From contig JADLBM010000021.1 in the NCBI GenBank assembly GCA_020847715.1, forward strand, positions 800 to 64,799: 64,000 nt of DNA, read 5' to 3'. The position numbers were made by a program, and so were the translations under genes. Under the pieces are notes generated by a model. The model was not told the origin of the DNA and ran no database searches. It was given only the letters and a program-made list of their open reading frames with translations. Origin of the DNA: Candidatus Yanofskybacteria bacterium. Its GTDB lineage: Bacteria; Patescibacteriota; Minisyncoccia; 2-02-FULL-40-12; GWA2-44-9. Shown piece after piece: positions 6,371 to 28,114 of the stretch. Position 1 is the stretch's first letter. The number at the start of each line of letters is the position of its first letter.

Positions 6371-6727
6371 TTAGAGCGTGATGCCTGCCGCACGGAGCGC
6401 CTCAGCGACTGCCTTGATGCGCCCGTGGTACTTGAATCCGGCTTTGTCGAATACAACCGTCGTCACACCCTTGACCTTGAGCAACTCCGCGAGCTTCTCT
6501 CCCGCCGTGGTCGCACGTACGGACTTTGCTCCCTTCACCTTGAGGTGTGCATCATTCACGGCCGCCACGGTTGTTCCGGAGACGTCGTCAATCGCCTGCA
6601 CATACACAGAGGTGTTGCTCTTGAATACGGTCACACGAGGCCGCTCGGCGGTGCCGGAAATCTTCGCGCGCCCACGCACCTGACGGCGGATACGATTGAC
6701 TCTCTTTGTGATATTGATGTCGGTCAT
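6371..6727 (-). CDS. rplR: 50S ribosomal protein L18
   Basis: MTDINITKRVNRIRRQVRGRAKISGTAERPRVTVFKSN. Confidence 0.93.
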   Translation of the reverse strand: MTDINITKRVNRIRRQVRGRAKISGTAERPRVTVFKSNTSVYVQAIDDVSGTTVAAVNDAHLKVKGAKSVRATTAGEKLAELLKVKGVTTVVFDKAGFKYHGRIKAVAEALRAAGITL

Positions 6728-6742
6728 GTTCGAGTATCAGCG

Positions 6743-7907: not shown

Positions 7908-8447
7908 CTATTTCTTCAACGGGAAACCGAGCAGCGTCAGCAAGGCAATGCCCTGCTCGCGGTTCTTCGCCGTTGTCGTGATGGTCACCTGCATACTGAA
8001 AATATCTTTCACATTCTCCACATTCACTTCCGGGAAAATGCTGTGCTCCTTGATGCCGACATTCAAGTTTCCTTCGCGATCGAAGTTCTTGGGATCGATA
8101 CCGCGGAAGTCCTTGGAAAGCGGGAGGGAAATCGTGATGAAACGCTCCAAAAAATCCCACATCCGCTTGCCGCGCAGCGTCACCGCAACGCCGACCGGAG
8201 TGCCCTGGCGCAGCTTGAAGCTCGCAATGGACTGCTTGGCCAACCGGCGCGAAGGCTTCTGCCCCGTGAGCACCGCGAGGTCGCGCTCGACGCGCTCGAT
8301 CGCTCCGGCATCCTTCGCCATGCGGCCGACGCCAACGTTCACCGTGATCTTGGTGATGCGCGGAACCGCCATGACATTGGCGATACCAAACTCCTTCCGC
8401 AGCGCGGGGAGGACCTTGGTCGTGTAGTTGTCGTGGAGACGTGACAT
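7908..8447 (-). CDS. rplE: 50S ribosomal protein L5
   Basis: MSRLHDNYTTKVLPALRKEFGIANVMAVPRITKITVNVGVG. Confidence 0.93.
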   Translation of the reverse strand: MSRLHDNYTTKVLPALRKEFGIANVMAVPRITKITVNVGVGRMAKDAGAIERVERDLAVLTGQKPSRRLAKQSIASFKLRQGTPVGVAVTLRGKRMWDFLERFITISLPLSKDFRGIDPKNFDREGNLNVGIKEHSIFPEVNVENVKDIFSMQVTITTTAKNREQGIALLTLLGFPLKK

Positions 8448-8491: not shown

Positions 8492-8803
8492 CTAGATCTG
8501 AATCTTCGTTTTGCGATCGATACGGACCTTTGTTTTGCCGTCCGCACCCAGCTGCCAGCCAACGCGAGCCGCCTTGCCGGTATCCTTGCTAGCGACCGCC
8601 ACCGCAGACGCGCTGACCCACCGCTCAACGGAAACGATCTGCCCTTTCGAGCCCGCCTTCCGAGGACGCAGGTGGCGCTTCACCATGTTCAGCCCTTCCA
8701 CAATGACCTTGTGTGCCTTCGGGTCCGTGCGAAGAACCTTTCCGGTCTTTGCCCGGTCCTTTCCGCTCAACATGATAACAGTGTCGCCTTTCTTGATCTT
8801 CAT
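8492..8803 (-). CDS. rplX: 50S ribosomal protein L24
   Basis: MKIKKGDTVIMLSGKDRAKTGKVL; listed ORF is over-extended at its 5' end. Confidence 0.9.
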   Translation of the reverse strand: MKIKKGDTVIMLSGKDRAKTGKVLRTDPKAHKVIVEGLNMVKRHLRPRKAGSKGQIVSVERWVSASAVAVASKDTGKAARVGWQLGADGKTKVRIDRKTKIQI

Positions 8804-13420: not shown

Positions 13421-14050
13421 CTAGGCGGTGATTTCAAGAATGGCGCCCTTCGCACCCGGAACCGCACCCTTCACGGCGAGCACACCGGCTTCGGCATCGA
13501 CAACGATGACCTTCAAGCCGCGCATACTGATGCGCTCCTGACCGTCGCGTCCCGGACCGCGCGTACCCTTCAGTGTGTGCTGAGGGAAGCGCTGACCGAT
13601 GGAACCGACGTGGCGAAGCACATGGTGGTGGCCATGGGATGCAGGAGCACCGTGGAATCCGTGGCGCTTCACCGCACCTGCAAATCCCTTTCCCTTCGTA
13701 AGCCCCGCGACCTTTACCACATCGCCAGGAGCAAAGATCGAGACATCGACGGAATCGCCGACGGCCAAATCCTTACCACCGACCGCAGTTGCCTTGAATT
13801 CGCGCGTCCAACGGAAGCTCCCCAACTCCTTGAAATGCCCGCGGAGACCCTTCCCGAGGTTCTTTGCCTTCTTCGTGCCCGCACCCAGCTGAACGGCCGC
13901 ATAGCCATCCTTTTCAACGGATTTGACCTGCGTGACCACATTCGGAGCGGCCTGAAGCAGGGTAACCCCAATGAGCTCGCCTTTTTCGCCATACACCTGG
14001 GTCATCCCCAGTTTAGTGGCAAGCATGAATTTTGCGGGTGTCTTTGCCAT
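13421..14050 (-). CDS. rplC: 50S ribosomal protein L3
   Basis: MLATKLGMTQVYGEKGELIGVTLL...KGKGFAGAVKRHGFHG; exact start (14050 or 14026) uncertain. Confidence 0.9.
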   Translation of the reverse strand: MAKTPAKFMLATKLGMTQVYGEKGELIGVTLLQAAPNVVTQVKSVEKDGYAAVQLGAGTKKAKNLGKGLRGHFKELGSFRWTREFKATAVGGKDLAVGDSVDVSIFAPGDVVKVAGLTKGKGFAGAVKRHGFHGAPASHGHHHVLRHVGSIGQRFPQHTLKGTRGPGRDGQERISMRGLKVIVVDAEAGVLAVKGAVPGAKGAILEITA

Positions 14051-14282
14051 AAACAACACAAATTCCGGCCTAGCCGGAACATCGGCGAAGCCACGTGCGA
14101 GGGTATCCATTGAAGGACCTGCCGCACGGTCGGGGTGTCTTAGGCCGGTTCTAACTCCTGCCGGAAACCCCTGCTGGGAAGCCGGTCGCCCGGCTCAAGT
14201 CAGCCCAACGACTATACACGAACCCCCAAAAGAATGCAAGCCCCCAACAAAAAGCCTGCGCAATGCGCAGGCTGGAGACGGT

Positions 14283-14663
14283 TCACTCCCGATAGCAGGT
14301 CGTGACCGTGTTGCAGATGCCCCGTCCGCCGACGCCGCTCGCTCCGCACCAGTAGTTCCACGCTTCCGACGAGGACCACGTCGCGGGCGTGATGCCCCCA
14401 CCCGACGTCCACCCCGAGTAGCCGACCGTGGCGCCCTGCATCCCGCCCCGCGGGTCCTCGACCGTGCAATAGCCGGTGAAGCCCTGCTCCTGCAGCAATT
14501 GCGGCCCCGCCACCGTACCGCAATGGAAGAGTCCACGCCTGCTGCAGAACTTGAGGCCCGTGTCCTGCTCGGGCGCGAGCGGGTTCAAGCAGCTCCCCGC
14601 ACCCATCAGGATGGGACTCAACACCACGACCATCAACGCGACGTATCGCTTCGCCCGCTTCAT
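14283..14663 (-). CDS. hypothetical secreted/lipoprotein-like Cys/Gly-rich small protein (8 Cys)
   Basis: N-terminal signal MKRAKRYVALMVVVLSPILMGAGSC; first gene of the island between rplC and rpsJ. Confidence 0.5.
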   Translation of the reverse strand: MKRAKRYVALMVVVLSPILMGAGSCLNPLAPEQDTGLKFCSRRGLFHCGTVAGPQLLQEQGFTGYCTVEDPRGGMQGATVGYSGWTSGGGITPATWSSSEAWNYWCGASGVGGRGICNTVTTCYRE

Positions 14664-14720
14664 TACCCCTCCTCAGCGAATATGAGAACCGACTGTACCA
14701 CTGTTCTTACTTATTGTCAA

Positions 14721-14790
14721 AACAAAAAAGGACCGGCGCGTGTGCGTCGGTCCGGAGAGCGGACTAGCGGAAACGGAGACCCCAGCGATG
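14721..14790 (-). repeat. direct repeat copy 1 (about 68 bp) carrying the gene 3' end plus a terminator hairpin GGACCG...CGGTCC plus T-run
   Basis: aaaaaaggaccggcgcgtgtgcgtcggtccggagagcggactagcggaaacggagaccccagcgatg is near-identical to 15451..15519. Confidence 0.8.
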
Positions 14791-14979
14791 CTCTCGGGGA
14801 CACCTGAAGAACTCCCGCAACACGGCCGGGAGAGCGATGGGACCGGCGAGCACGTTGAGGCACAGAGCGAGCCACTTCACGTAGCCGCCATCCTGGCAAA
14901 AGCCCACCGTGATGATGTGATTGACCCACGCCCACAGCAGGTAACCGGTCAACGGCCACAGCAGCCACCACAGATTCAT
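14764..14979 (-). CDS. small hydrophobic membrane protein, paralog of 15493..15738 (shared C-terminal HRWGLRF)
   Basis: 71 aa, 2 predicted TM; 3' end lies inside the 68-bp direct repeat. Confidence 0.5.
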   Translation of the reverse strand: MNLWWLLWPLTGYLLWAWVNHIITVGFCQDGGYVKWLALCLNVLAGPIALPAVLREFFRCPREHRWGLRFR

Positions 14980-15075
14980 GCTTCACCTCGGTTTCATAAT
15001 ATCACGGTTTCTTGATTCGTCAAATACAAAACAAAACCCCTCTCGGCCGAAGGGCATAGAGGGGTCGGGAACGGG

Positions 15076-15393
15076 TCAGTGGGTGAACGCGTAGTGCAGG
15101 AACATGACGAAGTAGACGACGAGCATGCCGCTCGCGAATCCGCCGGCTAGCGGATGCGGCGCGACCCAGTTTTCGCAGTAGGGATGCCCGGGAGACCCTC
15201 GGTCAGTCAACTCCTGCCAGCCCGCACCGAAGTTCGTGTGACTGGCGGTGAAGAACGCGATGAAGAACCCGAGGAACAGAACCCAAAATGGCAACGGGGT
15301 CTGGCGACACCACGCCTCATGGGCGGCCCGGAACCCCAGCACGAAGATGAGGCCCAAGCTGAACGCGAACCACCACAGTTTCTCAAAGGACAT
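15076..15393 (-). CDS. hypothetical membrane protein (about 105 aa, 3 TM)
   Basis: MSFEKLWWFAFSLGLIFVLGF...; hydrophobic profile. Confidence 0.45.
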   Translation of the reverse strand: MSFEKLWWFAFSLGLIFVLGFRAAHEAWCRQTPLPFWVLFLGFFIAFFTASHTNFGAGWQELTDRGSPGHPYCENWVAPHPLAGGFASGMLVVYFVMFLHYAFTH

Positions 15394-15450
15394 GGCACAA
15401 CCTCCTGATTCGATTATACTCCATTTTATTAGAAAAGTCAATGCCCATCG

Positions 15451-15519
15451 CGAAAAAAGGACCGGCGCGTGTGCGTCGGTCCGGAGAGCGGACTACCAGA
15501 AACGGAGACCCCAGCGATG
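15451..15519 (-). repeat. direct repeat copy 2 (terminator plus gene 3' end)
   Basis: matches 14721..14790 with 3 substitutions. Confidence 0.8.
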
Positions 15520-15738
15520 AGCTGCAGGAAAGTTGCGGGCTTCGGCCGCCGTGTTAAAGATGGCAATCGGCCCGGCAAGTATCCCGACCAGCAGCGCGAA
15601 AACCTTGACGTGCCGCTCCACCGCCCCACCCGCTCTGAGCGGATACACTCTGTTGAGCATGTAATTGAACCACGCCCAACCCAGAATGCCCAACACGGCC
15701 CACACGAGAACCAACCCGGACACCAGCCATGGATTCAT
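15493..15738 (-). CDS. small hydrophobic membrane protein, paralog of 14764..14979
   Basis: 81 aa ending AAHRWGLRFW. Confidence 0.5.
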   Translation of the reverse strand: MNPWLVSGLVLVWAVLGILGWAWFNYMLNRVYPLRAGGAVERHVKVFALLVGILAGPIAIFNTAAEARNFPAAHRWGLRFW

Positions 15739-15834
15739 CGAACCCTCCTAAAATAAATCATACACCTCTTATCTAGTTGTGTCAATGTCCAACAAAAACC
15801 CCTCGCGGATGCGAGGGGTCGGGAGCTTCATGTT

Positions 15835-16074
15835 CTACAGCAGAGGCACTCCGCAGTCGACGCAGCGCCCGCACTCGCTTACCGGACCATCGTGGTCGCA
15901 AGCCCACTTGCCCACCTCGTCAGCGGCGATGTACTTCGTGTCCTTACTTCCTGCAACATCCACCTTGAGGACAAGGCACCTCGTTCCCGCCCTGACAACG
16001 TACGTCGCGGGCGCTAAGCGTTTCGCTCCGCCCGTACTGGAAAGCCACCGCGTATCAACCCTCTGCTGTGCCAC
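15835..16074 (-). CDS. hypothetical small protein with C-terminal Cys cluster (CDHDGPVSECGRCVDCG)
   Basis: 79 aa; SD GGAGGT 4 nt upstream of ATG. Confidence 0.45.
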   Translation of the reverse strand: MAQQRVDTRWLSSTGGAKRLAPATYVVRAGTRCLVLKVDVAGSKDTKYIAADEVGKWACDHDGPVSECGRCVDCGVPLL

Positions 16075-16107
16075 TGTTCTACCTCCGCCAGCTGGATGAT
16101 GCGCGCA

Positions 16108-16332
16108 TCACATTAGCGAGTTCACCAAAAGAGCACCGATGAAGAGGACCAGCACCGCGAGAAGTACCTCCGCGAACATCGTGGCGCTAATCACACGGTC
16201 GCGCTCCTCCCGCCTCGCCTGCCATTCTGCGTGCATACCGTCCCAACACGCACCACAGTAGTTGCTTCGGTACCGCGCGAAGGCGTTGCACCCCTTGCGG
16301 ATGCACTTCTTCAACTGCTCACCTCTCACCAT
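16108..16332 (-). CDS. hypothetical zinc-finger plus C-terminal TM anchor protein (74 aa)
   Basis: CIRKGC-x10-CGAC then hydrophobic tail; SD GGAGGT 5 nt before ATG; probably co-transcribed with 16374..16661. Confidence 0.45.
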   Translation of the reverse strand: MVRGEQLKKCIRKGCNAFARYRSNYCGACWDGMHAEWQARREERDRVISATMFAEVLLAVLVLFIGALLVNSLM

Positions 16333-16373
16333 GCGAACCTCCGGAAAGACTCTGCCGCGCTTTCCAAGAACTT

Positions 16374-16661
16374 TCAGTGCCTCTGATTGCGGTCTCGATG
16401 CTGTGCGTAGATGGCGGGGATGAGCTCATTGAGGACTCGCTCGCGAGGCACCTCGGCAAGACTCCGAAACCCGTGCTCCGCAATCCAGAGCTGAACCTCG
16501 GGTTCGCGATTGAGCCGAGTATAGAGAGCGCCCGCGTCCTCCCGCACACCCGCGGCGAACGTCGTGAGCACGCGATGGACGCCGGTACTGATGCGATCCA
16601 CGAACTCTTCGACAACAGCAAGATCTGGGGCGACATCGTCTGGGTCTTCGCCATCCGCCAT
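16374..16661 (-). CDS. hypothetical small acidic protein (96 aa) behind conserved leader copy 1
   Basis: MADGEDPDDV...; listed ORF over-extended; conserved promoter/SD leader immediately upstream. Confidence 0.5.
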   Translation of the reverse strand: MADGEDPDDVAPDLAVVEEFVDRISTGVHRVLTTFAAGVREDAGALYTRLNREPEVQLWIAEHGFRSLAEVPRERVLNELIPAIYAQHRDRNQRH

Positions 16662-16710
16662 GTTCCACCTCCGCCGCGAGGTATACCACATGCGGCATAC
16701 CACCGCAACG
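16650..16710 (-). promoter_or_regulatory. conserved promoter/leader copy 1 (TTGCGG-17-TATACC then GGAGGTGGAACATGGCGGATG)
   Basis: about 60-nt near-identity with copy 3 (17636..17695) including the first 3 codons; core shared with copy 2. Confidence 0.65.
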
Positions 16711-16792
16711 CAGCAACGCATTGGAGCGTCCTCGCGCCCATGCGCTCGGAAACGAATGGCCGGCCATCCCCGCAGAAAACGAGCGGCCATTC

Positions 16793-16822
16793 GAAAAAAA
16801 GGCCGTCGGAGGGACGGCCGGC
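16793..16822 (-). terminator. terminator after 16823..17177 gene
   Basis: GGCCGGCCGTCCCTCCGACGGCC hairpin then TTTTTTT on minus strand. Confidence 0.6.
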
Positions 16823-17177
16823 CTATCGAACTTCCCGCACTCGCCCATCCTGGATGACCAGCTTCTCCTTCTTGAGCAGAACGGAATTCAGCATGCAGGA
16901 TTCATCCCACCCAGGACTGTCTCCCGGTCCCTGTGCGCTGTAGCGATCGCGACTCATCTTGCCGCATGCCATGCACACCCACACCTGCCCCTCCGGAGCG
17001 ATACGAGGGCCATCGCTCACCGACCCGCTTACCGGATCGGCCGATGAAAACACCGGCGCCATCCGCGCATCGGCAGCAAGCAGGCGCGCTCGCAGAACTT
17101 CCGGATGTCTCCCCGCCAGATGTGGGAATGAATTGATGAGCTCCCCGAACTCCTCCTTGCAGATGCTACACTTCATG
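16823..17177 (-). CDS. hypothetical Cys-rich zinc-ribbon-like protein (118 aa)
   Basis: MKCSICKEEFG...CMACGKMS...; preceded by leader copy 2. Confidence 0.5.
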
Positions 17178-17200
17178 CTCCACCTCCGCCGCAAGGTATA
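17165..17200 (-). promoter_or_regulatory. conserved promoter/leader copy 2 (GTGGTATACCTTGCGGCGGAGGTGGAGCATG)
   Basis: shares a 31-nt core with copies 1 and 3. Confidence 0.6.
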
Positions 17201-17217
17201 CCACGGTCTGCGTAAAA

Positions 17218-17250
17218 ACAAAACCCCTCGTGGCAACGAGGGGGTCATAT
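17218..17250 (-). terminator. terminator after 17256..17647 gene
   Basis: CCCCTCGTTGCCACGAGGGG then TTTTGTTTTT on minus strand. Confidence 0.65.
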
Positions 17251-17255
17251 AGTGT

Positions 17256-17647
17256 TCAGGTGCGGCGGTGCTCGGCGTTGATCTTGCCACAGAGCGTACA
17301 GACATCCATCGGCCGACCACACCCCACTCGATGCACATGATATTCGTCACAAAATGGCGGCTCGTTAAACTTGCCCGGACACGGCGGCGAGTAGTGCCGC
17401 GCCAGATCCGGAACCAATGCATTGGCGCTCTTGGCCCACTCATCGTCAGGATGCTGGTATGCCGCCTGCGCCAAGAGCCCAAGCGCTTCCTCCGCTGCCG
17501 TATATACGGCGTCCCAATCACAAACAAGCGCACCAACATCGATGTGGAGCAGCCCAACAAGCTTCATGAGCGTCTCGCGAGCTTGTCTGCCGAAGAACTT
17601 CTCGTCCCCGAGTTTCGCCTCAAGTCCGCCTTTGGCATCCGCCATGT
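17256..17647 (-). CDS. hypothetical protein with C-terminal Cys/His-rich zinc-binding region (130 aa)
   Basis: MADAKGGLEAK...CPGKFNEPPFCDEYHVHRVGCGRPMDVCTLCGK; preceded by leader copy 3. Confidence 0.5.
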
Positions 17648-17695
17648 TCCACCTCCGCCGCAAGGTATACCACATGCGGCATGCCACCGCAACGC
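17636..17695 (-). promoter_or_regulatory. conserved promoter/leader copy 3
   Basis: TTGCGGTGGCATGCCGCATGTGGTATACCTTGCGGCGGAGGTGGAACATGGCGGATG. Confidence 0.65.
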
Positions 17696-18017
17696 GGACG
17701 AGCGGCCATTCGTTCGAAAGAAAAAGGCGGAAGTGTTTCCACTTCCGCCTAGACCCAGCTTCGGGCCCTGCTCTACCGCCAGTGCTTGGGGTTCTGGCAG
17801 TGCCCCTCACCCTTGAACCAGCAGTTGACGAAGTCGTCCTTCACGCACTTCAGGAACGTGATGAAACGCTCGCGCACGGCTTATATCCTCCTGACAGGAT
17901 TCCACATCCCGTCTGGAACCATGGTACACTATTTTATTGAATAAGTCAATACCCCAAAAGTCAATCCCCGCCCACGGGATGATTACTACCCATTATCCAC
18001 ATTGAGGGGAGAAAAAC

Positions 18018-18356
18018 ATGCTCGTACAATCTATGCGTACCAAGTGGGCGTTGAAAACGAAAGAGAGCCGCACGCGAATGCGACTCGGGAATTCTTTCGT
18101 GAAGCGAGGATTACTGCTTCTGGGAAGACACCAGAAGAATAGCACGCCTGACACCTGCGCAAAACAAAACTGTGCACATATGGCAATAAAAACCATAAGG
18201 CAAATACGGCCTGTCCGCCCAATCAAGCCGATTGAGCGGATGCAAAATATCCAGACACTCCCCCCGATTGGGGCGAGGAAATGGATACGGGCGCATTGGC
18301 GTTACGACTACATCTCCCGAAAATGGGAGTGGGTCTTAGGCCACTGGTCACGTTAA
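18018..18356 (+). CDS. hypothetical basic protein (112 aa), only plus-strand gene in the island, within the low-GC patch
   Basis: SD GAGGGGAG before ATG at 18018; followed by a perfect 13-bp hairpin at 18368..18398. Confidence 0.4.
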   Translation: MLVQSMRTKWALKTKESRTRMRLGNSFVKRGLLLLGRHQKNSTPDTCAKQNCAHMAIKTIRQIRPVRPIKPIERMQNIQTLPPIGARKWIRAHWRYDYISRKWEWVLGHWSR

Positions 18357-18367
18357 GCCCAGACAAC

Positions 18368-18398
18368 ATCACAAACAGCTCACCGAAGTGAGCTGTTT
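18368..18398 (+). terminator. perfect 13-bp stem hairpin (ACAAACAGCTCAC / GTGAGCTGTTTGT), likely terminator
   Basis: inverted repeat directly after stop of 18018..18356; weak T-run. Confidence 0.45.
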
Positions 18399-18463
18399 GT
18401 GTGCCACTATACTAGGATATCGCTTCAATGGTGGCGGGGATGTGGCAAGAGAGGGGGTGAAAT

Positions 18464-19027
18464 CTACTGACCATCGGTAGGGGCAGCTTTTGCTTTTTCC
18501 TGCTCATCAATGTCCTTCACGTTCCAGCCCTTGGTGGTGATGATTTTGTCTCGGAGGTAGATACCAAGCACTTCAGTAACATCACTGAACTCAAGACCTT
18601 CTTTGAAAAGGTAGTCCTTGATTGCCGTCATGCGGTCGTCTGCCTCAAGCGTAGCAATGACCTTCTTTGATGCTTCCTGTACATCGTAGGATGTCTTTAC
18701 ATTCTCGCCATCAACCTTGCTCAGAAGGTCGGTGATATTATCGTCAACAAACTTCCGACCACCGCTTTCGGTAAGCACTTTCTCTCCACGTTCCGTGAGG
18801 GAGATAGGGCTTTTCTTTTTCGTGAGAGGGCCTTGATTGTCTAGCATCGTCTCACACTTTATTGTTTTGTCGCGAATTTCTTTTACTTCCTTTTGCACCC
18901 CTTCAATATCCTTTTCGGCTCGGTCAACCTTAGACTTATATTGACCGATGGTGAATACGGCTGACAACCCACCGACGATTGCGGCAAGCAGGAGGTTTAC
19001 TATGAAGAAAATCATCTCTTTATCCAT
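18464..19027 (-). CDS. hypothetical N-terminally TM-anchored coiled-coil protein (about 187 aa) in low-GC patch
   Basis: MDKEMIFFIVNLLLAAIVGGLSAVF TM then charged coiled coil; local GC about 45% versus about 60% window average. Confidence 0.5.
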   Translation of the reverse strand: MDKEMIFFIVNLLLAAIVGGLSAVFTIGQYKSKVDRAEKDIEGVQKEVKEIRDKTIKCETMLDNQGPLTKKKSPISLTERGEKVLTESGGRKFVDDNITDLLSKVDGENVKTSYDVQEASKKVIATLEADDRMTAIKDYLFKEGLEFSDVTEVLGIYLRDKIITTKGWNVKDIDEQEKAKAAPTDGQ

Positions 19028-19247
19028 GAACGTATGGTACAAGATATTTGGGGTATTTGAAAGTATCATTCCGATGTTCATGTCTTAATTGCTGCCAGGG
19101 AGTACTCACCATATTTTTTTAGTCTGAGTGAGCGCTCGATCCAGTCACCCAGCGGCCCCGCGCTTGGCCGCAGATGAGGCGATGAAATCCGGCTTCGGCC
19201 CCGACGAGGTCCGAGCGATTTCCTTTCGTGCAGGTCGAGAGCTAGCG

Positions 19248-19649
19248 CTAGAAAGTATTTTCAAACTCTCCATCCTTGCAGAGCGCATTTTCCCGCCACC
19301 AGAAAGATAATCCTCCACCGTTCAAAGGGTAAAGTTCGTCACATTTCGCATCGCTTTTTGGTTTCGGGTCGCTATACCTGATGTAGCACGTGTCGTTTCC
19401 CTCGCCATACCGCCAACCCTTCACATTGCTCCACTTGGCACCCTCAGTCTTGTAAATCGCCAAGCAATCATTTCTTCTATCAGCAGCATATTTCTTATTA
19501 GCCTCTTCGCTCTTTCTATTTTGGTACCCCTGATACGAAGCAGAGGCGACGACTACCACTAGAAGTATTGATAGCAGTATGCCGACCCTAAACCAATTGT
19601 GACCCAGCCAGCGTAATGCGCGAGAAAGTATGCGTTTCATCATACCCAT
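19248..19649 (-). CDS. hypothetical TM-anchored secreted-domain protein with 4 Cys (133 aa)
   Basis: N-terminal TM VGILLSILLVVVVASA, then Cys-containing domain; lower GC. Confidence 0.45.
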   Translation of the reverse strand: MGMMKRILSRALRWLGHNWFRVGILLSILLVVVVASASYQGYQNRKSEEANKKYAADRRNDCLAIYKTEGAKWSNVKGWRYGEGNDTCYIRYSDPKPKSDAKCDELYPLNGGGLSFWWRENALCKDGEFENTF

Positions 19650-19805
19650 ATGTTACACCTACTGCCTTTCGCTACAATAGATTCGCGAGTCCGGATGCTC
19701 CGCGATGCGCGAGCGAGAAGCGCAGTGAGCCGTACTACCGATACGGCGAGCGCGCATCGCAGCGGCAACGAAGCGGGGCGCCGGAATCGCGAATCCCCCA
19801 GCAAA

Positions 19806-19835
19806 AGCAAAAGACCCCAAACGGGGTCTTTTGCT
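19806..19835. terminator. bidirectional rho-independent terminator (GACCCC-AAAC-GGGGTC flanked by T/A runs)
   Basis: terminates tuf-rpsJ transcript on minus strand; U-run present on both sides. Confidence 0.7.
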
Positions 19836-19892
19836 TTGCCATGAGTACTCGGTAACCCTTCGACTTCGCTCAGGGTAATTCGCCCTAGCGAA

Positions 19893-20219
19893 TTACATTT
19901 TGATTTCGATGTCGACGCCCGCAGGAAGTGCCAGATTGGTCAACGACTCGATAATCTTCGGAGTCGGACCGTGGATGTCGATGAGGCGCTTGTGGATGCG
20001 CATCTCGAACTGCTCACGGGAGTGCTTGTCGATGAACGACGCGCGGTTGACCGTGAACTTCGAGATTTCGGTCGGAAGGGGCACCGGACCTACCGGCTTG
20101 CCACCGTACCGCTCGATGGTATCCGCGATTTGCCGCGCCGACTTGTCGATGATTTTGTTGTCGTATGCGCGGAGCTTGATGCGGATGCGCTGCTCCTGTT
20201 TTTCGGTTTTCTTGGCCAT
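19893..20219 (-). CDS. rpsJ: 30S ribosomal protein S10
   Basis: [40 protein letters not shown]; its stop overlaps a 20-bp palindrome TAATTCGCCCTAGCGAATTA. Confidence 0.94.
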
Positions 20220-20242
20220 GGCAAAGAACGAATGAGGTGTGA

Positions 20243-21439
20243 TTACTTGATGATCTTCGTAACCGCACCGGCGCCGACCGTCTTACCGCCTTCGCGGATA
20301 GCGAAGCGAAGCTTCTCATCCATAGCGACAGGGGCGATCAGCGTTACCTTCACGGTCACCGTATCACCAGGCATGACCATCTCGGCACCCTCCGGGAGGA
20401 ACACCTCGCCGGTCACGTCAGTGGTGCGGAAGTAGAACTGCGGCTTGTAGCCCTTGAAGAACGGCGTGTGGCGTCCACCCTCTTCCTTCGTGAGCACGTA
20501 GATTTCTGCCTCGAACTCGGTGTGCGGGGTGATCGAACCCGGCTTCGCAAGCACCTGTCCGCGCTCGACATCCTCTTTCTTCAGACCGCGGATAAGGATA
20601 CCGGCGTTGTCGCCCGCCATACCTTCGTTGAGCGACTTGTTGAACATCTCGATGCCCGTGATGACGGTCTTCTGCGTCGGGCGGAGACCGACGACCTCGA
20701 CTTCATCGTTCACCTTGCACATACCGCGCTCGATGCGTCCCGTGACGACCGTGCCGCGACCTTCAATGGTGAAGATGTCTTCCACCGGCATGAGGAACGG
20801 CTTGTCGGTTTCGCGCTTCGGCTCGGCGATGTAGCTGTCGCAGGTGTCGATGAGCGTCTTGACTGCCTTCACGTACTCGTCGTCCTTCGACTTGCCCTCG
20901 AGCGCCTTCAGACCGGAACCGCGGATAATCGGGGAATCGGTGAAGCCATACTTGGCAAGAAGGTCCTTCAGCTCAGCCTCAACGAGGTCGAGCATTTCCT
21001 TGTCATCAACCATATCAACCTTGTTCAGGAAGACGATGATGTACGGAACACCAACCTGCTTGGCGAGCAGGATGTGCTCGCGGGTCTGCGGCATTGCGCC
21101 ATCGGTGGCGGCAACGACCAGGATTGCGCCGTCCATCTGGGCGGCACCCGTGATCATGTTCTTGATGTAGTCAGCGTGTCCCGGAGCGTCGATGTGTGCG
21201 TAGTGGCGGTTCGGGGTCCAGTACTCCGAGTGGTGGAGCTGGATGGTGATACCGCGAGCCTTTTCCTCCGGAGCCTTGTCGATGGAGTCGATGGCCTCAA
21301 CGCGAGAACCATAGCCCTCATCCTTATACATATCCAGCACGTGCAGGATGCCTGCCGTGAGGGTGGTCTTGCCGTGGTCAACATGGCCGATGGTGCCGAT
21401 GTTAACGTGTGGCTTTGTACGATCGAATGCGTCTGCCAT
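20243..21439 (-). CDS. tuf: elongation factor Tu
   Basis: [30 protein letters not shown]. Confidence 0.97.
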
Positions 21440-21454
21440 AGGGTTTAGTACGTG

Positions 21455-21545
21455 CGATGCGCCGTTGGTTCACCAGACCAGTGTCGCCGTGGTGTGCGCC
21501 AGTGGTCTAGCGGCATCGCACAATTAGTGTTCTTCATTTTATACG
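21455..21545 (-). other. structured element in tuf 5' leader (nested inverted repeats GTGCGATGC...GCATCGCAC and AGACCA...TGGTCT)
   Basis: about 80 nt, multi-stem, between small ORF 21565..21849 and tuf start. Confidence 0.35.
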
Positions 21546-21564
21546 GAATGCTTCACGAAGTCAA

Positions 21565-21849
21565 CTATCGCTGTCCCTCCCCTTGCGCCTCCTCCTGGGC
21601 TATCTGCTCTCGCAATGCCAGGATCTCTTTATTCAATCGCTCGAGCACCGCATCCTGCGCTTGCGCCGCGGGCCGGCTTTTCGGCCACCGAGCGGCGATG
21701 GGCACCTCCTCCGACGCTTCGGTCGGAGCCCCGACCGCTTCGCGTCGGGGTTGCCCCAATTCCCGTACGACGAGCGGTAAGTGCCCCTCCTCGACCAGCA
21801 CCACCGAGCCGTACTCCTTCACCAATTGTCGCACCTGCTTAATATCCAT
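21565..21849 (-). CDS. hypothetical 94-aa protein inserted between fusA and tuf
   Basis: MDIKQVRQLVKEYGSVVLVEEGHLPLVV... then charged helical tail; ATG 2 nt after fusA stop (possible translational coupling). Confidence 0.4.
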   Translation of the reverse strand: MDIKQVRQLVKEYGSVVLVEEGHLPLVVRELGQPRREAVGAPTEASEEVPIAARWPKSRPAAQAQDAVLERLNKEILALREQIAQEEAQGEGQR

Positions 21850-21852
21850 GGA

Positions 21853-27654: not shown

Positions 27655-27741
27655 AACGAACCTCCGAGGAGAGTATGCCATGCCGTGCAAGAAAGACAAC
27701 AAACAAGAACGTGCCACTTGGCACGTTCTTGTTTGTGATTG

Positions 27742-27793
27742 TCGGGCTGCCGGGAATCGAACCTGCCTACCGGCAGGCAGGCCCGGTCTACAT
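27742..27793 (-). pseudogene. tRNA-Pro 3' fragment (positions about 41-73) carrying a 20-nt hairpin-forming insertion (27764..27783) between T-stem and T-loop
   Basis: identical to the intact tRNA from ATGTAGACCGGG to CAGCCCGA except for inserted GGCCTGCCTGCCGGTAGGCA. Confidence 0.7.
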
Positions 27794-27828
27794 TCGCTCC
27801 GCGACCTGGGAATCAGTCATCACCAATG

Positions 27829-27899
27829 TCGGGCTGCCGGGAATCGAACCCGGTCTACATGCACCCCATGCATGCGTACTACCGGTATACGACAGCCCG
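27829..27899 (-). tRNA. tRNA-Pro (anticodon GGG)
   Basis: hand-folded cloverleaf: acceptor CGGGCUG/CAGCCCG, D-stem GUAU/GUAC, anticodon stem CAUGC/GCAUG, loop AUGGGGU, T-arm CCGGG-TTCGATT-CCCGG, discriminator A. Confidence 0.8.
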
Positions 27900-27936
27900 A
27901 CATTAGTGACGACCGCTTTTCAATGCTCTGATTCCC

Positions 27937-27962: not shown

Positions 27963-27998
27963 CCCCATGCATGCGTACTACCGGTATACGACAGCCCG
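27963..27998 (-). pseudogene. tRNA-Pro 5' fragment (positions 1-37, through the anticodon)
   Basis: 37/37 identity to the intact tRNA 5' half, then diverges. Confidence 0.75.
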
Positions 27999-28114
27999 AG
28001 TATCTGTTTTGCCGCGTCAGCATACCCTAGAATACGGTGAGAGTCCAGGAGCGCCCCTTTCTTTTTCCAGGCACCCGTGGCATCATGCGCCTGCTATTTC
28101 ACAAAGGAGAGATC

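Follow-up and report, generated by a model that had tools for sequence, protein, structure and literature searches.

The stretch of DNA analysed here, a 64,000-nucleotide (64-kb) window from a metagenome-assembled genome of Candidatus Yanofskybacteria, contains a 67-nt direct repeat that joins the 3' ends of two small membrane-protein genes, here designated B and D, to a predicted transcription terminator. The repeat is explained best, and with moderate confidence on our part, as a composite of two pieces with separate histories: codons for a C-terminal protein motif that were kept alike by selection, and a terminator module that was copied through recombination within a cassette-like array of small genes. 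The array belongs to a variable island of 5.8 kb (14111-19892, minus strand) placed between rplC (13421-14110, minus strand) and rpsJ (19893-20219, minus strand), the genes of ribosomal proteins L3 and S10 that are normally neighbours in the S10 operon. Most likely, the repeat marks a recombinational turnover of gene units at this site.

Results

Anatomy of the repeat

The two copies of the repeat (14724-14790 and 15453-15519) are identical at 65 of 67 positions and offset by 729 bp. Read on the minus strand, each copy is composed of seven codons for HRWGLRF, a last sense codon, the stop codon TAG, a 10-nt spacer, a hairpin and a run of six U. The motif codons of copy 1 occupy positions 14770-14790, followed by the last codon CGC (Arg) at 14767-14769, TAG at 14764-14766, the spacer at 14754-14763, the hairpin at 14730-14753 and the T-run at 14724-14729; in copy 2, the corresponding elements are found at 15499-15519, 15496-15498 (TGG, Trp), 15493-15495, 15483-15492, 15459-15482 and 15453-15458. 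Both mismatches between the copies fall in the last codon, which is CGC in gene B (14764-14979, minus strand) and TGG in gene D (15493-15738, minus strand), so that two of its three bases are exchanged (C/T and C/G). From the stop codon onward, TAG and the adjoining 40 nt (10-nt spacer, 24-nt hairpin, T6) agree at all 43 positions. The identity ends exactly with the T-run on the downstream side, while on the upstream side the identical module starts at the stop codon, beside the motif codons. Inspection of the sequence shows TCCGCTCTCC next to the module at one end, and at the other end T6 continues into GTTTTGA or CGCGATG. Outside of the repeat, the alignment of B and D shows visibly lower nucleotide identity.

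The repeat is not a product of chance. Its 37-nt and 21-nt sub-patterns each occur exactly twice in the window and not once in 100 dinucleotide-preserving shuffles of it. Repeat families of at least 30 nt number only three in the window, and two of them lie inside the rpsJ-rplC island. A first-pass annotation of this DNA had described near-identical sequences comprising a minus-strand terminator and the eight final codons of two proteins (71 and 81 aa) with the ends HRWGLRFR and HRWGLRFW. This description is accurate except for coordinates that are off by 2-3 nt, and the products of B (71 aa, HRWGLRFR) and D (81 aa, HRWGLRFW) are paralogs indeed, with 40% of their residues identical and a pairwise E value of 4e-14.

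Conserved codons and a copied module

The motif-coding tails were compared in 13 genes from six genomes, all from the protein family of B and D that is defined below. Over the 21 nucleotides that encode the motif, B and D match members in other genomes (e.g., the loci L013, L001 and L002 in our numbering) at 18-20 positions; the mean over all pairs is 15. Because other genomes reach 19-20 of 21, the complete match of B with D (21/21) needs no explanation at the level of DNA. The likeness of the motif codons is read here as the outcome of purifying selection on the protein signature, to which codon bias adds. The last codon, harbouring both mismatches, encodes the terminal position that varies across the family. 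The motif-coding third of the repeat being explained by protein constraint and codon bias, the 68-mer of the first-pass annotation does not hold as a single unit.

Outside of the motif, B and D are 36.5% identical, and B shows 41% identity to P0004 and P0010, two members from other samples. B being thus no more distant from these members than from D, the two genes are old paralogs and not recent duplicates, which disposes of the earlier suggestion that a recent segmental duplication had given rise to them.

The 43-nt module requires a different explanation. Homology between the window and a sister genome (L001) covers the 3' half of the terminator upstream of D, the D promoter and the D gene, and it stops exactly at the D stop codon. 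Past this point, the two sequences are unrelated, and the L001 ortholog of D carries a different terminator. The genes C, B and A, which follow D in the window, are all absent from L001. Whereas the D orthologs of window and L001 have accumulated a synonymous divergence (dS) of 0.29, there are 0 differences in 43 positions between the two modules of the window, which dates the copying of the module to after the two genomes had separated. From these comparisons, the module appears as a recent copy made within the Yanofskybacteria genome and specific to that genome.

The module as a predicted terminator

RNA folding of the module gives the hairpin GGACCG-A-CGC-ACAC-GCG-C-CGGUCC, which has nine pairs (eight G-C, one A-U), a 1x1 internal loop and a 4-nt loop, starts 10 nt past TAG and is followed by U6. 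A simple terminator scan missed this hairpin because of the 1x1 internal loop. The module shows the sequence features of an intrinsic terminator, namely a G+C-rich stem-loop and a U-run just past a stop codon. Each copy is most likely an intrinsic terminator, predicted to insulate a single-gene unit from the promoter 7-15 nt downstream.

In principle, the copies could also have been kept identical by selection on the 3' end itself, if it worked as an RNA in its own right or as a site for binding, e.g., as a small RNA from the 3' untranslated region or as a regulatory hairpin common to both paralogs. The perfect identity includes the loop and the spacer, positions at which a terminator could accept substitutions, and the 86-nt stretches comprising the hairpin fold somewhat better than shuffles (z = -2.6 and -2.0). 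However, an Rfam search of positions 13500-20500 gave no match at E <= 1, the D ortholog in L001 has unrelated sequence downstream, and the module is absent from the other genomes and metagenomes searched, the exact hairpin having 0 matches in 596 Gb of reference genomes and in the JGI metagenome collection. Every island, furthermore, has a different module. A role of this kind is considered highly improbable.

Gene units A to D

Gene C (15076-15393, minus strand; 105 aa), located between B and D, encodes a predicted three-helix membrane protein without family match, and gene A (14283-14663, minus strand; 126 aa), downstream of copy 1, has a lipoprotein-like signal with Cys shortly past a hydrophobic N-terminal segment. 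A promoter scan over 5.5 kb revealed seven promoter-like sites, as compared to 1.9 expected, and the best four precede A, B, C and D. They are sigma-70-like sites on the minus strand, found at 15757-15785 for D (TTGACA-17-TATGAT, 11/12), 15413-15441 for C (TTGACT-17-TATAAT, 11/12; directly past copy 2), 14996-15023 for B (TTGACG-16-TATTAT, 10/12) and 14692-14720 for A (TTGACA-17-TACAGT, 10/12; directly past copy 1). Each of the four genes has a Shine-Dalgarno sequence and a terminator-like hairpin of its own, that of C (15036-15055, minus strand) being unlike the repeated module in sequence. Another terminator-like hairpin (15797-15820, minus strand) closes the upstream G-F-E unit, and it is in its 3' half that the homology to the sister genome starts. 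The order in the direction of transcription is E terminator; promoter, D, module; promoter, C, own terminator; promoter, B, module; promoter, A, A terminator; and, lastly, the rplC promoter. Genes A to D look like autonomous promoter-gene-terminator units, as far as can be predicted. Open reading frames (ORFs) on the plus strand that cover the repeat (14740-15015 and 15469-15756) were rejected, for conservation and the ratio of nonsynonymous to synonymous divergence (dN/dS) favour the minus-strand frame. A Pfam scan of ten island ORFs yielded no significant match.

Repeated modules within the window and in related islands

A promoter/start module of 66 nt is repeated in the same island. The copy before gene G (16646-16711, minus strand) shares 94% of its positions with the one at 17630-17695 (gene I), and 67% with that at 17161-17226 (gene H). 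The module includes the -10 region of a promoter together with a ribosome-binding site and ATG-GCG-GAT (in sequence, -10 region, GGAGGTGGAAC, ATG-GCG-GAT) and covers the first 3-4 codons. The proteins of G and I both start with MAD because the repeat reaches that far into the coding sequence; the two products have no evident similarity. The module flanks the I-H pair, and I and H are absent from L001.

Repeated terminator modules are found in five of the six islands examined (the window, L001, L002, L005 and L010), and each island has a module of its own. The 36-nt module of L001 occurs twice, on either side of the D unit, and that of L002 (53 nt) three times, with two of the copies extending to 113 nt; L010 has two copies of a 45-nt module. 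In L005, a 19-nt hairpin, CCCCCGCATCTYGCGGGGG, occurs five times and only inside the island, a promoter module occurs four times, and paralogs share a 40-nt 3' end (93%).

The most direct view of unit turnover is offered by near-identical strains from Hainich groundwater that differ by exactly one unit. L002 and L003 are identical to L004 across a 74-aa gene. L002 and L003 carry a 570-bp unit (133-aa gene) between the 113-nt repeats, and L004 is without this unit. The single module of L004 corresponds in its left part to copy 1 of L002 and in its right part to copy 2, the crossover lying inside ~55 nt of perfect identity. The difference between L002 and L004 is read as the gain or loss of one unit via recombination between repeated terminator modules.

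One could ask whether the hairpin modules are attC-like sites of a dedicated cassette system, at which a recombinase moves single units in and out of the rpsJ-rplC site. The suggestion draws on one-directional arrays of small ORFs between genome-specific, homogenised hairpin repeats, on one unit that is present or absent between strains with one repeat copy left, and on the island's location at the same chromosomal site in six genomes. Yet no recombinase family was found among the island ORFs scanned, and the records of the related islands list no integrase domain. The short, near-perfect stems with T-runs have the anatomy of terminators, the units have their own promoters, and the L004 crossover within perfect identity is as expected of homologous recombination. 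An attC site was rejected also from reading the sequence, for there is no R''/R' core pair (RYYYAAC ... GTTRRRY) at or around the module. We regard a site-specific system of this type as very unlikely.

Origin of the repeat in the window

The composite origin of the repeat can be formulated as a sequence of steps. A two-unit block (promoter-C-terminator, promoter-B) would have been placed behind D, most probably by homologous or short-homology recombination. The motif codons together with the terminator would have provided the homology patch for joining the C-B block to D, and the module would have been left as direct repeats on either side of the 729-bp block. Single-crossover integration of an excised circle, a putative intermediate, and unequal exchange would each give such flanking direct repeats. 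With the repeat pair as substrate, C and B could also be deleted. The earlier proposal of a cassette-type repeat fits partly into this scenario, in that the repeat lies at the edge of cassette-like units; its supposed propagation does not, given the absence of the hairpin from other genomes and metagenomes and the different terminator of the L001 ortholog.

Several points weigh against the insertion scenario. No genome or contig presents this particular locus with C and B missing, and insertion is thus a presumed event for the 67-nt repeat; L001 is without A as well and has a different terminator, hence presents no clean empty site. A patch of 43 nt or 21 nt is near the lower limit for RecA-type recombination. 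The functions of promoters and terminators are predicted ones, in an uncultured host from the candidate phyla radiation (CPR), and the window derives from a single metagenome-assembled contig in which strain mixing is possible.

The last of these points leads to an assembly artefact as an explanation to be weighed, in which a short sequence common to two strains or loci would have caused them to be joined into a chimera. It would be in keeping with proteins D and B each occurring on one contig only. But common assemblers probably use a largest k-mer that exceeds the perfect stretches (43 nt and 21 nt), which we assume here; the genes follow a coherent order in which every unit has its promoter, its ribosome-binding site and its terminator; and independently assembled genomes exhibit a like architecture. 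Among all explanations considered, an artefact has the lowest probability.

A more serious competitor is short-tract gene conversion, or replication template switching, between long-adjacent paralogs, with no insertion involved. The nascent strand would switch at the HRWGLRF codons and return at the T-run, overwriting one terminator with the other. The edges of identity, at the end of the T-run and at the stop codon next to conserved motif codons, would be well accommodated. The shared 3' ends of the L005 paralogs and the homogenised look of the terminators within each island are in line with it also. The last codon, however, differs at two of three bases in the middle of the presumed tract, which makes a single tract of motif and terminator unlikely, whereas a tract beginning at the stop codon would have TAG alone as upstream homology. 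Moreover, C, B and A are all missing in the sister genome, and L002 compared to L004 reveals gain or loss of a whole unit, which is beyond homogenisation. Conversion is accordingly viewed as possible but rather unlikely. The direction of the event, insertion or conversion, is an inference; the composite of selected codons and a recombination-borne module is retained as the preferred explanation.

A family of two-helix membrane proteins with an RWGLRF tail

Proteins B and D are each recorded once, in the Candidatus Yanofskybacteria metagenome-assembled genome, a member of the CPR. An exhaustive profile search of 1.84 billion representative proteins retrieved 29 clusters (E <= 1e-3), almost all being 69-87 aa in length; two weaker matches, representing internal stretches of ~2,000-aa proteins, were set aside. 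In a second database, 25 family proteins were confirmed. The family alignment comprises an N-terminal W-rich helix (M-x-x-WWLLLWPLSGxLGWAWxN), a second helix with G-P and the C-terminus [H/N]RWGLRF[WRK]; most members end in RWGLRF or a close variant, then W, R or K. The family, unnamed and defined in this analysis, is delimited by a length of 69-83 aa, the W-rich helix, the GP helix and C-terminal [HN]RWGLRF[WRK]. B and D align to it over their full length and belong to it. The initial idea of a membrane protein that has two helices and a fixed motif at its C-terminus thereby gains support, the motif being the defining element of a family in several CPR genomes.

D is 85% identical to its ortholog in L001 with a dN/dS of 0.26, and is therefore a protein-coding gene under constraint. 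Searched as DNA, the motif-plus-stop pattern occurs in reference genomes in three CPR genomes, plus one chance match in a transporter gene; in metagenomes, only matches in Hainich groundwater contigs are real, three others not being small membrane proteins; and in viral contigs, there were 0 matches. Pfam, NCBIfam, PHROGs and PADLOC returned only scattered matches (E > 0.004) for the 25 family members. The literature searched had nothing on the RWGLRF-tail family or the rpsJ-rplC island.

An AlphaFold2 model built from the family alignment (predicted local distance difference test, pLDDT, 89.5) displays, with confidence, a helical hairpin with an extended C-terminal tail. The helices comprise residues 3-31 and 39-67, with a break at G56-P57. 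Foldseek comparison of the model to the PDB gave nothing at E <= 1e-3, and the helical hairpin is a non-diagnostic fold. The C-terminal tail of the family is basic (mean net charge +2.4), and the inter-helix loop varies in length and in charge (-4 to +4, mean +0.6). By the positive-inside rule, both termini would lie in the cytoplasm and the variable loop would point outward. With low confidence, we suggest that the basic and aromatic RWGLRF tail, located at the membrane surface, could dock to a conserved partner or the inner leaflet while the exposed loop diversifies.

The rpsJ-rplC island across genomes

The island of the window is packed with small minus-strand genes. Of seven genomic contexts, six have family members situated in the rpsJ-rplC gap, often as tandem arrays: two in the window (B and D), one in the sister genome L001, one in the Hainich groundwater contigs (L002-L004), four in GCA_964356795.1 (L005, L006, L008), two in tandem in L010 / L011, and three in L013 that are in tandem and translationally coupled. 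The sole context outside of the gap involves a divergent member, P0014 (L012). The other island genes vary by genome and include DUF3800, HNH, DUF2726, an N6/N4 methyltransferase and an NYN domain protein. A blastn comparison of the whole island with 50,697 phage records gave no match, and no relatives of D were found in viral contigs (IMG/VR).

Several observations made along the way concern the same loci. GCA_964356795.1 (L018 / L005) is labelled 'uncultured Candidatus Saccharibacteria'. The label looks doubtful because L3, S10, gene order and island closely resemble the Yanofskybacteria loci. In the D unit (window 15493-15820 compared to L001 9925-10246), the dS of 0.29 is below that of rplC (0.82) and gene G (0.74), and hints at more recent exchange between lineages in what is a small sample of 62 synonymous sites. 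A promoter-like site (CTTGCA-17-TATAGT) belongs to rplC itself, as does a leader of ~130 nt whose conservation between window 14111-14282 and L001 10300-10520 is evident on inspection. The leader had no match to an Rfam family; it might be autoregulatory, e.g., by L4 binding, and relocated from its usual place ahead of rpsJ. Between fusA and tuf, an ORF of 87-94 aa without Pfam match is conserved in all related loci (L001 4082-4366, L002 3677-3940, L005 3460-3723, L010 927-1193), and a gap at ~21440-21852 of the window matches it in position.

The part of the island near rpsJ has a distinct composition, with a G+C content of 0.50 at 18001-20000 as compared to ~0.58-0.60 elsewhere, and is probably of foreign origin. 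Its ORFs include one of 205 aa (18464-19081, minus strand), a basic one of 112 aa (18018-18356, plus strand) and a membrane-anchored one on the minus strand that ends at ~19641, as read by eye. The 112-aa ORF runs towards a hairpin (18370-18401) at which transcription from both directions could end.

Other repeats and hairpins were noted. The 113-nt module of L002 (6284-6344, 6854-6914) contains a second long hairpin, CAGAATCGC-AGCGCC-GAC-GGCGCT-TGA-GCGATTCTG. In its inner stem, one copy has a C-G pair where the other has an A-T pair, an apparently compensatory change that suggests a conserved structure beyond the terminator. L005 has a 181-nt intergenic repeat (6556-6736 / 8090-8270, 90% identical) just past terminator modules; with its 15-nt inverted ends (AGCATTGGCAATGCC ... 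GGCATTGCCAATGCT), it resembles a miniature inverted-repeat transposable element (MITE) or a long structured element, and a possible inverted copy lies near 8600-8700. In the window, the 5' half of tRNA-Pro(GGG) (27828-27899, minus strand) is perfectly duplicated over 37 nt (27864-27900 / 27963-27999, 99 bp away), and a further fragment resembling the tRNA 3' end is found upstream (27741-27765). The duplication could be the scar of an element integrated at the tRNA.

Discussion

Taken by itself, the repeat is a modest and ordinary footprint of recombination. Its importance lies in the setting. A rare two-helix family with an invariant tail, restricted to one clade and undescribed in the libraries and literature searched, is nearly always found inside the S10 operon, where a hypervariable island splits S10 from L3 and hence interrupts one of the most conserved gene orders of bacteria. 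The units of this island appear to turn over at repeated regulatory modules. For CPR bacteria, with their tiny genomes and many uncharacterised small membrane proteins, the island offers a concrete locus for studying gene gain and loss.

A wider generalisation, which we advance as speculation and deem unlikely, would have the rpsJ-rplC gap serve as a dedicated cassette-acquisition site in a Yanofskybacteria-like clade. Complete units of promoter, gene and terminator would be captured, excised and swapped between strains by recombination at terminator or promoter modules, in the manner of an integron analogue without integrase, and the RWGLRF-tail proteins would be the resident core component. 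If this were the case, the combination of a constant cytoplasmic tail and a variable outer loop would fit a diversifying role of these proteins at the surface, or one in association with the ribosome or the translocon, in an episymbiont.

Among known systems, two types of element were considered for the 67-nt repeat and rejected. A diversity-generating retroelement does not agree with the substitutions, the copy differences being C/T and C/G in one codon and not adenine-specific; no search for a reverse transcriptase gene was made. A MITE or insertion sequence should have terminal inverted repeats and multiple dispersed copies, but the repeat is without such termini, occurs only twice in 64 kb and is missing from the public collections searched; besides the module hairpin, an inverted-repeat search of 13500-17000 found one weak and distant pair (15265-15279 / 16491-16505) that is unrelated to the repeat. 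Concerted evolution or gene conversion of the ends and flanks of paralogs has in common with the repeat the sharp rise from a much lower identity to 97% between old paralogs, in one genome only; it differs in that the piece copied here is almost wholly non-coding, starts from the stop codon and falls on a gene-unit boundary.

On the protein side, class II holins, type I toxins and small translocon-associated proteins bear a resemblance to the RWGLRF family by size (69-83 aa), helical hairpin and basic C-terminal tail. The family is unlike them in having no sequence or fold match in Pfam, NCBIfam, PHROGs, PADLOC or the PDB and no evident lysis or toxin-antitoxin partner, and in its genes being tandem paralogs with strong predicted promoters beside ribosomal genes.

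Integron cassette arrays have species-specific, homogenised attC repeats, e.g., the Vibrio cholerae repeats. The island is like them in its one-directional, small and mostly unannotated ORFs, its genome-specific hairpin repeats and the presence or absence, between strains, of one unit that leaves one repeat copy behind. It is unlike them in that the hairpins are predicted terminators with T-runs, each unit has its own promoter and the crossover fits homologous recombination. An integron proper was rejected, as there is no IntI or attI beside the array bounded by rpsJ and rplC and no recombinase Pfam match in the ten island ORFs. Phage 'morons', reportedly described by Hendrix and colleagues in about 2000, are said to be autonomous promoter-gene-terminator units between prophage genes. 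Genes A to D resemble them as compact units of promoter, Shine-Dalgarno sequence, short ORF and terminator-like hairpin inserted between operon genes that are normally adjacent. PHROGs, scanned among the island proteins with the RWGLRF family members alone, gave no match for these; and unlike morons, which reside in prophages, the A-D array is found without phage or viral match and prophage context, at a fixed ribosomal-protein locus across a CPR clade.

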